From the IMG/VR virus record IMGVR_UViG_2667527666_000008: a stretch of DNA of 33,255 nt; one strand, 5' to 3'. This DNA comes from a virus. Taxonomy: Duplodnaviria > Heunggongvirae > Uroviricota > Caudoviricetes. Positions 4,363 to 13,805 of this stretch are shown here, piece by piece. Both the position numbers and the translations under genes were made by a program. Within the stretch, counting starts at the first letter, position 1; each line of letters starts with the position of its first letter. The notes below the pieces were generated by a model, which saw only the letters and a program-made list of their open reading frames with translations, made no database searches and was not told the DNA's origin.

Positions 4363-4932
4363 TATCGCGTCCTCAACAATGAATTTTGTGATGCAGTGCC
4401 TGGTGCCTCCAGGTGACGTTAACCAGTTAACAATTAACGCCGGGTTAGTTGATGCTCGTTACGCCCGTAAAATACCGCCTTACTGCTTTAACTGTTCCGC
4501 GTGCGCATAGCCGCATTCACCGCATCACAAAATTCACTTTAAAAAGGGCGGCAGAGCAGTCACGGAGTAAAACTGATACCGCCAAATGTCACCAGAAAAT
4601 TGATAACAGAGGGCGTTGTAGCGGGGTTGTCACTTAAGCGTATGGTCAACCTGACAACCCGGTGCATTTTCTGGAGCAATGGAGGAAACCCCAGCCATAC
4701 TTACCGCCGCGCCATTTCGCGGAGTGCCACAACCGGAAGCGCACGGTCGAACTAAATTTAACGACACCGTACAGAGAGACCAATTTCGCCGTGCGCTTTC
4801 GCGTTATGCCCTGACTTTTCAGGGACATATCCTTTCAGTAAACTGTCAGTGCCGGATGCTCACCCGTGTCCGGCGCACGCACTCCACCTGACCAGTGGAG
4901 AACTCCTTAATTACCAACCCTCAGGAGGGTGA

Positions 4933-9601: not shown

Positions 9602-10492
9602 TCAGGCTGCCAGATCATCGTTTCCGATGGAAGCATAATAAGCTTTTTCTGCTTCTGCCGGAGGAGTATGGCCCAGCCTTTCCAGCAATCGTCGATTGTT
9701 ATACCAGTCCACCCACGTGAGTGTGGCCAGTTCCACTTCTGCACGGTTTTTCCAGCTCTTACGGTGTATTACCTCCGCTTTGTAAAGACCATTGATGCTC
9801 TCCGCCATCGCGTTGTCATACGAGTCGCCTGTACTTCCTGTTGATGCCAGTAATCCGGCTTCCTTAAGCCGCTGTGTGTAGGCCAGCGATACATACTGAG
9901 AACCTTTATCACTGTGATGGACCGTGCCGGACGGTCGACGGGCCCATAACGCCTGCTCCAGTGCATCCAGCACGAATGTCGTTTCCATGGACGATGAGAC
10001 CCGCCACCCCACGATGTATCCGGCAAACACATCAATGATGAACGCCACATAGACGAAGCCCCGCCATGTGCTGACGTAAGTAAAATCAGCCACCCACAGC
10101 TGGTCAGGTCGTTCTGCCACGAACTGACGGTTTACGCGGTCGCCTGCGGCAACGGCTTTCCGGCTGATGGTCGTACGGACCTTTTTACCCCGGAGAACAC
10201 CGGCAAGTCCCATAACCGCCATGAGACGTGCCACAGTGCATCTGGCCACTCTGATACCTTCCCGTAACAACTGACGCCAGACTTTACGCACACCGTATAC
10301 CTTGTGATTTTCATCGTATACGCGCTGTATCTCTTTCTTCAGCCAGTCATCGCGCTGCGCACGGGCACTGCGTTTATCCGGATGATGTCGCTGTTGCTGA
10401 CAGTGGTAATACGTTGACGGGGCAATATGCAGTTCGCTGCATAGCGGTCCGACCCCGTACTGCTCACGCAGCTTATCCAGCAGTGGCATCAT
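9602..10492 (-). CDS. IS3-family transposase OrfB (DDE integrase core)
   Basis: 296-aa ORF with DDE catalytic signatures (WVADFTYV..., HSDKGSQY..., [15 protein letters not shown]); overlaps OrfA by 4 bp. Confidence 0.9.
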
Positions 10493-10815
10493 TTTTTCCA
10501 GAGGCGGTCGAACTCCGCCTTCGCAAAATAAGCGGAAGCCTGGCGAAGGATATCGTTACTGCGGCGCAGTTCACGATTTTCACGTTCCAGCTCTTTCAGA
10601 CGCTGACGTTCAGCGGTGGTGAGCCCGCCATCACCGCCCCCGGTATCCCGCTCATGCTGGCGAACCCAGACACGCAGAGTCTCCGGCGTACAGCCAATCT
10701 TTGGAGCAATGGAACAAATTGTCGCCCATTGTGAGTCATATTCGCTCTGACTTTCCAGAACCATACGGACTGCCCGTTGACGGACTTCGGGGGAAAAACG
10801 AGTATTTTTAGTCAT
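10489..10815 (-). CDS. IS3-family transposase OrfA (HTH)
   Basis: 108-aa ORF with an HTH and leucine-zipper-like C-terminus ([18 protein letters not shown]). Confidence 0.9.
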
Positions 10816-11909: not shown

Positions 11910-12596
11910 ATGACCCCAATAAAAATATTTATGACTATTGCTGATTTCAAACGGCCTAAATTGGAGCTCCCAAACGGGGCAAACAAACTACTACTGCACT
12001 CTTGCTGTGCTCCATGTTCCGGTGAAGTGATGGAGGCGCTTCAGGCCTCGGGAATCGACTACACCATCTTTTTCTACAACCCGAACATTCATCCTCAGAA
12101 AGAGTATTTAATTCGTAAGGATGAAAATATTCGCTTTGCTGAACAACACGGCGTGCCGTTTATCGATGCTGATTACGACACCGACAACTGGTTTGAACGT
12201 GCCAAAGGAATGGAATGGGAGCCTGAGAGGGGGATCCGTTGTACCATGTGTTTTGACATGCGTTTTGAGCGGACAGCGTTGTACGCTGCTGAAAATGGTT
12301 TCAGTGTGATCAGCAGTTCACTGGGCATTTCACGCTGGAAAAATATGCAGCAGGTTAACGAGTGTGGGCGGCGAGCTGTTGCGCATTATCCGGGTATGGT
12401 GTACTGGGATTATAACTGGCGCAAGCAGGGCGGCTCGTCCCGTATGATTGAAATCAGCAAGCGCGAAAAATTCTATCAGCAGGAATATTGTGGCTGTGTG
12501 TATTCTCTGCGCGATACCAATCTACACCGCAAATCTCAGGGACGCCCTCTTATCAAAATTGGCCAACTCCACTACGGAAAAGAAGAGAAGGAGTGA
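11910..12596 (+). CDS. QueH-like protein (DUF208, epoxyqueuosine reductase family)
   Basis: Family-diagnostic motifs '[11 protein letters not shown]' near the N-terminus and '[11 protein letters not shown]' near the C-terminus, plus internal '[10 protein letters not shown]'; alternative start at 11931; preceded by a promoter-like AT-rich region. Confidence 0.65.
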
Positions 12597-12833
12597 TTTT
12601 ATGGATCACCTTTCTGATTGATTTCATATTGGCGAGGTGACGTGAGTTAAGTAGAATGGCTGCGGGTGCTTGAGGCTATCTGTCTCAGGCATGAACACTG
12701 AAAGGCAGATAGAGAAAAGCCCCAGTTAACATTTCGCGTCCTGCAAGACGCTTAACATTAATCTGAGGCCCAATCTATGTCTCACAAATGTAGGTTAGCC
12801 TCTTACGTGCCGAAAGGCAAGGGGAAGCAGGCT

Positions 12834-12989
12834 ATGAAGCAGCAAAAGGCGATGTTAATCGCCCTGATCGTCATCTGTTTAACCGTCATTGTGACGGCAC
12901 TGGTAACGAGGAAAGACCTCTGCGAGGTACGAATCCGAACCGGCCAGACGGAGGTCGCTGTCTTCACAGCTTACGAACCTGAGGAGTAA
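12834..12989 (+). CDS. hok: Hok/Gef-family type I toxin (51 aa)
   Basis: MKQQKAMLIALIVICLTVIVTALVTRKDLCEVRIRTGQTEVAVFTAYEPEE: single transmembrane helix plus the conserved Hok C-terminal region; in-frame upstream extension from 12777; structured leader and 3' fold-back hairpins. Confidence 0.85.
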   Translation: MKQQKAMLIALIVICLTVIVTALVTRKDLCEVRIRTGQTEVAVFTAYEPEE

Positions 12990-13058
12990 GAGACCCGGCG
13001 GGGGAGTAATCTCCCGCCACCTCTGATGTGCCAGGCATCCTCAACGCACCCGCACTTA

Positions 13059-13078
13059 ACCCGCTTCGGCGGGTTTTT
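13059..13078 (+). terminator. Intrinsic terminator (CCCGC-ttcg-GCGGG-TTTTT)
   Basis: GC stem-loop plus T-run downstream of hok; the same hairpin recurs at 14894..14915. Confidence 0.65.
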
Positions 13079-13154: not shown

Positions 13155-13805
13155 ATGAATGAAAATCAGTTAGCTCCTTGTTGGGAATTTCAACCTTATC
13201 TTGCTGAAAACTATGTTCGCCACTTGTTGGCGGAGATCGCTAACGTACTTGAGCAGCTGTACTATCATAAGCACGCATTAGACAGCAACTGGTCTGAAGG
13301 TGTAAGGGCTTATGATTGGGTCAGAAATCATCTTATTCAAAATGAAGATGCAATTCCTGGCCTTGAGATGATTTCCAAGGGGTTGGACTATGTAGTTGCT
13401 TTAAATAAAGTTCCGCTACAATTTACCAAAGATTGCATTAATAACCCCAAAAAGAAACATCGTCTGCGTCGAAATAAAGTAGAGTATGAGCAGCTCTCAT
13501 TGTTTGGTGATGTTGAGGCTGAGCAAGATATTACATGGCGAGTCATAGCTGAGCCTTTTTTATCCGAAGAGGGCGATGGTGAATTAGAGTCCACACTGCC
13601 TCGTTGGGAGGTAGCTCTTGTTGGATTTAATACTTATGGTGCTCAGATTAGTATAGTTTCTCATCAATCTACAGCATCGATGCCGCTTATGCCTCTTGAT
13701 TATAACACACTCCCTGACGAAGCGGAGATTAATAAGGTGCCTCTTCGTCGGCGTACGAAGGATAAAGATTTGGATGTGAGCAGTGATGGAACATCAGGTG
13801 AATAA
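13155..13805 (+). CDS. Hypothetical protein (216 aa), first gene of a two-gene cassette
   Basis: AT-rich ORF with no recognisable motif; acidic C-terminal half; stop overlaps the start of the downstream HTH-peptidase gene by 23 bp (operon). Confidence 0.6.
   Translation: MNENQLAPCWEFQPYLAENYVRHLLAEIANVLEQLYYHKHALDSNWSEGVRAYDWVRNHLIQNEDAIPGLEMISKGLDYVVALNKVPLQFTKDCINNPKKKHRLRRNKVEYEQLSLFGDVEAEQDITWRVIAEPFLSEEGDGELESTLPRWEVALVGFNTYGAQISIVSHQSTASMPLMPLDYNTLPDEAEINKVPLRRRTKDKDLDVSSDGTSGE

Follow-up and report, generated by a model that had tools for sequence, protein, structure and literature searches.

A hok/mok/sok type I toxin-antitoxin module, very probably complete and of the hokW-sokW lineage, in a lambdoid prophage

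Here, we report a hok-type locus in a 33,255-nucleotide (nt) stretch of DNA from a virus of the Caudoviricetes (IMG/VR record IMGVR_UViG_2667527666_000008), the whole of which is called the window below. A first-pass annotation made from the letters of the window had proposed a hok-family type I toxin under hok/sok-type antisense control, and matches to PF01848 and RF01794, a 93% identity to the locus of 933W and an element-by-element alignment with an IncF locus all agree with that proposal. The 51-amino acid (aa) open reading frame (ORF) that had been picked out as a Hok/Gef-type membrane toxin (12834-12989, plus strand) indeed spans the full Pfam HOK_GEF profile (PF01848; E = 1.2e-23, 82.9 bits vs a cut-off of 22); the NCBIfam Hok models score below their cut-offs on the same protein (48.5 bits vs 73). 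Its peptide is identical to the HokD peptide, which was reported to be toxic (bioRxiv 10.1101/2025.08.07.668861). The in-frame upstream extension noticed at first reading begins at the ATG at 12777, giving a 70-aa ORF (12777-12989), and this extension is the mok reading frame.

Fifty-three related loci were collected from a one-genome-per-species collection. The 33 complete ones, 61-90% identical to the window, were aligned with the window itself and with 933W, i.e., 35 sequences in all; the aligned loci come from Escherichia, Shigella, Kluyvera, Pseudocitrobacter, Citrobacter, Pantoea and Photorhabdus, and the conservation counts in this report refer to this alignment. The 57-nt in-frame spacing from the aligned mok start to the hok ATG is shared with 24 of the 35 relatives, mokW among them. 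The mok Shine-Dalgarno (SD) sequence pairs alternately with two leader boxes, ucb (the anti-SD box) and dcb (downstream complementary box). Near the end of the toxin gene, the TACG at the Tyr47 codon coincides with a tyrosine at which A-to-I editing was reported for the hokC, hokD and hokE mRNAs (PMC5630033); a short local fold gave no tRNA-like stem-loop around this site.

The leader matches the Rfam sok/hok-leader model (RF01794) at 12664-12839 with 120.5 bits against a gathering score of 59 (E = 3.4e-27 in a scan of the whole window), and the match covers model positions 1-157. Please note that the match lies on the hok-sense strand and is therefore evidence for the leader, not for an antisense gene or its transcription. 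The 417-nt RNA starting at 12664 folds with a minimum free energy (MFE) of -169.1 kcal/mol (z = -6.2 vs shuffles). Over the whole predicted fold, 85.6% of the alignment cells pair, vs about 43% when partners are slid; 28 pairs are changed on both sides, and all the shuffles fall short of the observed values.

The two ends of this RNA are held together by pairing of tac (translational activator element) with fbi (fold-back inhibitory element). The 3' fold-back element suspected at first reading is present, i.e., CCTCAA-C-GCACCC (13039-13051) pairs with GGGTGCTTGAGG (12664-12675), and the duplex is found in both the MFE and the centroid structure with a pair probability of 0.99 in the full-length RNA. 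In the same place, 12661-12669 and 13046-13054 form a perfect inverted repeat of 9 nt with arms 376 nt apart. The 5' end of the mRNA, GGG[U/C]GCUUG, is conserved in the 35 loci. The leader alignment with hok/sok and hokD loci that the first-pass annotation had put forward as a check located the antisense promoter and the regulatory elements, and it found the fold-back kept in all 35 loci, with compensatory changes: GGGUGC/GCACCC becomes GGGCGC/GCGCCC, GAGG/CCUC becomes GAGA/UCUC, and GAAG/CUUC also occurs, i.e., U:A changes to C:G, G:C to A:U and A:U to G:C. These figures come from duplex folding of each sequence, which was used because column-wise counts under-count pairing in the inner half of tac/fbi (Photorhabdus is without the bulged C).

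Covariation is also seen in the hairpins of the leader. The metastable hairpin of the nascent transcript is 96.4% paired in the 35 loci, with three doubly changed pairs, and position 4 of tac (U or C) covaries both with its fbi partner (UA 22, CG 11) and with its partner in the metastable hairpin (UA 22, CG 12). Such coupled covariation of tac position 4 is known for the hok mRNA family. The 5' stem-loop (helix 2) is 88.7% paired with four pairs changed on both sides; it contains the first of two inverted repeats that had been singled out by eye, GGCTATCTG (12674-12682) with CAGATAG (12706-12712), both arms of which are present within the conserved MFE helix. Within ucb, AAGCCCC is invariant, and the helix of ucb with the mok SD is 93.7% paired across the loci, with two covarying pairs; its probability in the full-length RNA is 0.61. 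The GC-rich 3' hairpin (helix 15) is 97.2% paired, with two doubly changed pairs, and its R1 counterpart shields the truncated mRNA from exonucleases (PMC9841398).

Table 1 Features of the hok/mok/sok module and of its surroundings in the window
Feature	Position	Strand	Basis or remark
hok promoter: -35 TTGGCG (12629-12634), 17-nt spacer, -10 TAGAAT (12652-12657)	12629-12657	+	promoter scan and conservation
Full-length hok mRNA, ~415 nt	12664-13078	+	5' end placed at the start of the Rfam match; 3' end at the terminator
tac (translational activator element), GGGUGCUUGAGG	12664-12675	+	pairs with fbi
Metastable 5' hairpin of the nascent transcript, 12666-12676 with 12682-12692	12666-12692	+	MFE structure of the first 37 nt
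5' stem-loop with the GGCTATCTG...CAGATAG repeat	12676-12712	+	MFE structure; helix 2
Sok-like antisense RNA, ~71 nt	12715-12785	-	coordinates transferred from sokW of 933W
ucb / anti-SD box, AAGCCCCAG	12717-12725	+	partner of the mok SD in the closed form, of tac in the processed form
Palindromic apex, 16 nt, GCGUC-CUGCAA-GACGC	12736-12751	+	tip of the ucb/SD hairpin, i.e., of the Sok terminator hairpin
mok SD, GAGG, 8 nt ahead of the mok ATG	12765-12768	+	invariant in 35 loci
mok reading frame, 70 codons, in frame with hok	12777-12989	+	ORF list
Sok promoter: -35 TTGCCT (12820-12815), 17-nt spacer, -10 TAACCT (12797-12792)	12792-12820	-	homology; start ~12785
dcb (downstream complementary box), GCCUC	12798-12802	+	partner of the mok SD; helix 5 of the MFE structure
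hok toxin gene, 51 aa	12834-12989	+	Pfam HOK_GEF; SD GGGGA at 12821-12825
TACG at Tyr47, the TadA A-to-I editing site known from hokD (A12973; Tyr to Cys)	12972-12975	+	TACGAA invariant in 35/35 loci
GC-rich 3' hairpin, would end the processed (truncated) mRNA	12997-13018	+	helix 15
fbi (fold-back inhibitory element), CCUCAA-C-GCACCC	13039-13051	+	pairs with tac
Intrinsic terminator, AACCCGC-TTCG-GCGGGTT, then a T run	13058-13078	+	terminator scan
DicF antisense small RNA	4546-4597	-	77 bits
IS3-family element (ORFs 9602-10492 and 10489-10815; frameshift ALIL pseudoknot 10418-10534)	9602-10815	-	
queH, upstream of the hok module	11910-12596	+	epoxyqueuosine reductase QueH homologue, Pfam E = 1.1e-65; same annotation in 118UI
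216-aa ORF	13155-13805	+	directly after the hok terminator
Two adjacent ORFs	17730-19309	+	serine/threonine kinase and PP2C phosphatase in 118UI
Three tRNA genes	19796-20042		
STnc100 small RNA, first copy	20121-20311	+	136 bits
STnc100 small RNA, second copy	20589-20798	+	165 bits
617-aa ORF	21021-22874		SASA family carbohydrate esterase in 118UI

The second repeat named at first reading, GCGTC (12736-12740), CTGCAA and GACGC (12747-12751), is likewise present in a conserved MFE helix. It is the apex of a hairpin with a double use, serving as the terminator stem of Sok and as the ucb/mok-SD stem of the mRNA. This apex is an insertion relative to the Rfam consensus and shows one G-C to A-U exchange. 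It occurs in only 13 of the 35 loci, namely prophage copies, two Kluyvera-type groups and one Enterobacteriaceae isolate; the chromosomal hok loci of several Escherichia species do not have it, nor do Photorhabdus, Pantoea and the IncF locus.

The predicted fold responds to the position of the 3' end. In the full-length RNA, forcing tac to pair with ucb costs 11 kcal/mol and the pairing has a probability of 0.00, whereas with the 3' end cut back to 13020-13030 the tac/ucb pairing belongs to the MFE structure with a probability of 0.39-0.95. In the alignment, tac/ucb is 99.6% paired and mok-SD/dcb 100% paired; pairs are possible in 99.8% of the cells and all the columns are invariant. In the model for R1, tac/fbi closes the full-length RNA while the mok SD is held by ucb, and 3' trimming leads to tac/ucb and mok-SD/dcb, permitting translation and Sok binding (PMC9841398). 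The trimming behavior computed for 3' ends at 13020-13030 matches this model.

On the minus strand, the putative Sok transcript from 12784 to 12712 would begin with a 5' tail of 8 single-stranded nt, which leads into a long hairpin and then CUUUUC (-29.6 kcal/mol, z = -5.5). Annotation transfer from 933W puts its start 7 nt past the -10 hexamer. Whether the antisense promoter was intact had been left undecided by eye. We found its hexamers base-for-base the same in 933W/Sp5, the -35 (TTGCCT/TTGACC) in 35/35 loci and a TAnnnT -10 at 17-18 nt in 27/35; eight loci of the hokC type (our assignment, see below) align with a gap at the Sok -10. The record of Sp5 (Enterobacteria phage VT2-Sakai) carries a locus 93% identical to that of the window. 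In Sp5, the sokW RNA was detected, it neutralizes HokW when expressed from its own promoter, and mutations in this promoter abolish protection (PMC8621323). Because this 93% identical copy makes sokW RNA from a functional promoter of its own, we regard the Sok promoter of the window as intact, as far as the sequence allows such a statement. The hok promoter is placed with its -10 at 7 nt ahead of the conserved 5' end; 933W and other prophage copies share the part in which this hexamer lies, and TATAAT stands at the aligned position of the IncF locus.

The closest comparison is hokW/mokW/sokW of 933W/Sp5 (VT2-Sakai), which is 93% identical at the nucleotide level over window positions 12644-13061. 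Like the window, 933W has an in-frame mok of 70 codons, a Hok of 51 aa, the same Sok promoter hexamers and the same 16-nt apex in the Sok hairpin, with one loop base different. HokW differs from the Hok of the window at four residues (T45V, A46D, P49S and E51K), and the Mok leader also differs at four. The homology breaks upstream of 12644, i.e., inside the hok promoter between the -35 and the -10, and after 13061, just past fbi, so that 933W has a different -35 region and is without the terminator that the window and K-12 share. Since these breaks flank the transcription unit, the cassette shared with 933W is the transcription unit itself. The location is different as well: the 933W module is near the right genome end, after the tail genes, whereas that of the window is between queH and the nin-like region. 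The near-identity extends over the whole unit, the Sok gene and its promoter included, and both are carried by lambdoid prophages, as characterizes the hokW-sokW lineage.

The second comparison is hokD of K-12 (relF; L003, MG1655 1645119-1645633), located in the cryptic Qin prophage. Its Hok protein is identical to that of the window, the coding region, the 3' untranslated region and fbi are nearly identical from about 12822 on, the terminator is identical and the TACG site is the same. However, everything upstream of the hok SD is replaced in K-12 by the 3' end of relE, and the hok promoter, tac, ucb, the mok start, the Sok gene and a complete Sok promoter are all missing. The Qin arrangement, with hok right after relBE and its own leader, mok and sok lost, was not found in the window, where hok has a full leader and follows queH. 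By sequence, K-12 hokD reads as a leaderless remnant and the window locus as the complete, self-regulated form. The name "hokD" given by the Prokaryotic Genome Annotation Pipeline (PGAP) reflects protein identity only, since the K-12 locus differs upstream. Two other loci (L007 and L028) have relE-type upstream sequence as in K-12 hokD.

The plasmid-type comparator is a single IncF (R1-type) locus (L057); a blastn search of the plasmid collection for R1 hok/sok mostly returned phage-plasmid copies named "hokD", and of IncF-type loci it gave only short leader fragments. The IncF locus aligns with the window in the same order throughout, i.e., -10, tac, 5' hairpin, ucb, mok SD, dcb, Sok promoter, hok SD, TACG, 3' hairpin and fbi, and its Sok -35 (TTGCCT) is identical. 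There are differences too: mok (DUF5431) of the IncF locus overlaps hok in another frame whereas that of the window is in frame, the apex is missing, and tac reads GGCGC vs GGGUGC in the window. R1 hok/sok is carried by a plasmid and has a proven role in post-segregational killing; HokW is 44% identical to R1 Hok (PMC8621323).

Chromosomal hok loci of several Escherichia species (L015-L022) encode a toxin 80-82% identical to that of the window and have a related leader with tac/fbi kept. We take these loci to be of the hokC (gef)/mokC/sokC type. The in-frame 57-nt mok-to-hok spacing is present in 4/6 of them; they differ from the window in being without the apex, in the minus-strand -10 region (aligned as ACTCT) and in being chromosomal rather than prophage-borne.

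Many complete E. coli chromosomes contain a 501-bp region with the locus at 100% identity and have the gene annotated as hokD, and a copy covering at least 80% of the region is present in 3848 of 5426 complete E. coli genomes. The best matches among phage records are the temperate coliphages Tritos, HannyBb and mEp460 (94-95%), along with Shiga toxin (Stx) phages annotated mokW/hokW/sokW. In the RefSeq record that we examined, the hokD coding sequence is the sole annotation under the match, with no entry for the mok frame, Sok RNA or regulatory boxes.

Taken together, 12629-13078 of the window is very probably a complete hok/mok/sok type I toxin-antitoxin module of the hokW-sokW lineage, the one that PGAP names "hokD". 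The span originally proposed (12600-13078) stands from the hok promoter at 12629 onward as the module proper, while 12600-12628 is only intergenic DNA after queH. Two other readings, the leader as a different cis-regulator and the 70-aa ORF as the only product, were considered and rejected. It is a module of an already known kind: the family, the RNA switch and the hokW-sokW lineage have been described and annotated before, and the value as a discovery is accordingly small. What goes beyond routine annotation is minor, i.e., the contrast with the truncated K-12 hokD, the coincidence of the cassette bounds with the transcription unit and the occurrence of the apex in 13/35 loci. For annotation, it is of use that "hokD" as assigned by PGAP here is a complete self-regulated hok/mok/sok unit, in contrast to the K-12 reference copy without a leader, and the module can be used as a clean, naturally occurring illustration of how hok mRNAs fold along a conserved pathway, coupled covariation at tac position 4 included.

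The following mechanism is proposed. The promoter at 12629-12657 would be constitutive and would give the hok mRNA of about 415 nt, in whose nascent form tac would be kept in the metastable hairpin. Once the RNA is full length, tac would pair with fbi and ucb would close the mok SD, allowing neither translation nor Sok binding. Slow 3' trimming to the hairpin at 12997-13018 would then take fbi away, letting tac pair with ucb; the freed mok SD would pair with dcb or be read, and in-frame translation of mok would drive that of hok. The unstable Sok RNA of about 71 nt (~12785-12715, minus strand; promoter 12820-12792) would pair with the mok start region, and the duplex would be destroyed, by RNase III in R1 and in a partly RNase III- and Hfq-dependent manner in hokW. 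If the supply of Sok stops, the 51-aa Hok would be made, insert in the inner membrane and collapse it. Homology supports this molecular mechanism well; the biological role is less secure.

For the role, our preferred reading is that Sok is lost on prophage induction and that Hok then speeds growth arrest and lysis and raises the phage yield, which we hold as a roughly balanced call. We propose it because the 93% identical Sp5 locus behaves in this way: in the Sp5 lysogen, sokW vanishes after mitomycin C in a RecA-dependent manner, and HokW, which is toxic, precedes the endolysin by about 1 h; when the locus is deleted, growth arrest comes about 40 min later and half as much phage is released (PMC8621323).

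Several observations weigh against this picture, molecular or biological. The hok promoter is the sole sigma-70-like site from the promoter scan, one site being found vs 1.0 expected by chance, and the same consensus scan missed the Sok promoter, of which the -35 has 4/6 and the -10 (TAACCT) 3/6 consensus matches. With a scan at chance level and blind to the Sok promoter, the promoter calls rest on homology and conservation. An RNA ending at 13036 keeps the metastable hairpin in its MFE structure, not tac/ucb; as the choice of 3' end decides whether the open form is predicted, computation cannot settle the true processing site. The invariance of tac/ucb and SD/dcb makes covariation silent on both, i.e., it neither supports nor contradicts them. 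For the window locus itself, we infer transcription start sites, Sok expression, 3' processing and toxicity. As for the role, the window prophage carries an IS3-family insertion sequence (IS) and may not be inducible, which would undercut a function in lysis, and chromosomal hokA, hokB and hokC did not mediate post-segregational killing (cited in bioRxiv 10.1101/2025.08.07.668861).

The module could have the same parts and another main role, i.e., stabilization of the prophage by killing cells that lose it, or abortive infection against superinfecting phages that shut off transcription of the host. Maintenance of mobile elements and phage defense are established for toxin-antitoxin systems, and for Hok in particular, and hok genes are four-fold enriched in prophages (bioRxiv 10.1101/2025.08.07.668861). 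An unstable Sok combined with a stable hok mRNA would suit any trigger that stops transcription (PMC9841398). However, the sole direct test of a near-identical prophage locus gave an effect on lysis and phage release, with no growth effect under normal conditions (PMC8621323), and hok loci are not enriched next to defense systems (bioRxiv 10.1101/2025.08.07.668861). We consider such a role possible, at a minority chance.

It is very unlikely that the locus is structurally intact but silent, i.e., a hitch-hiking relic, as most chromosomal hok loci of K-12 would be, whose mRNA is locked closed or whose Sok is always in excess, with no effect on host or phage: inactivity in K-12 was reported for hokA, hokC, hokD and hokE (PMC5630033), hokA/B/C gave no rifampicin activation any more than the killing mentioned above (cited in bioRxiv 10.1101/2025.08.07.668861), the K-12 hokD leader is entirely lost and the IS3 element is present, but in the window all the regulatory elements are intact, with purifying selection and compensatory changes on them, toxicity has been shown for a peptide identical to the product of the ORF, the 93% identical hokW-sokW has a measurable lysogen phenotype and the module persists, at no less than the 80% coverage given above, in most of the complete E. 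coli genomes.

Codons 2-4 of mok (12780-12786) are the most variable stretch among close relatives, reading TCTCAC here vs CTGAAC in 933W. This stretch doubles as the mok-SD/dcb hairpin loop, which has a YUNR-type motif (CUCA or CUGA), and as Sok's 5' tail. The variation could set the specificity of Sok between co-resident copies. A broader proposal, that the apex and this loop act together as an anti-cross-talk code insulating the Sok of each prophage from other hok copies in the genome, seems improbable to us; if true, it might also account for the report that sokW depends in part on Hfq and RNase III.

As for the surroundings, the module forms a cassette of its own within the early region of a lambdoid E. 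coli prophage, flanked by queH and nin-like genes. In strain 118UI, the locus is in a lambdoid prophage beside ompW, and the window is the same prophage with 99% identity apart from the IS element. The gene order in 118UI begins with integrase, excisionase, exonuclease, dicB, repressor-like genes, O/P-like replication genes, DUF1627, DUF977, queH and hok, and continues after hok with two unknown genes, DUF968, rusA, Q, a kinase/phosphatase pair, three tRNAs, holin and lysozyme. The 216-aa ORF behind the hok terminator has no Pfam or NCBIfam match; its 118UI counterpart is annotated as hypothetical and is followed by a protein with a helix-turn-helix domain.

Other features of the prophage are noted here for completeness. 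The replication/DUF1627 region contains the IS3-family element, which is upstream of queH by about 1.1 kb, and the IS3 copy of 118UI is elsewhere in the same prophage. As in prophages of the Qin type, DicF is encoded close to dicB in the early-left region. The kinase and phosphatase ORFs are downstream of Q. The two STnc100 copies are in tandem, just after the three tRNA genes and before the 617-aa ORF.

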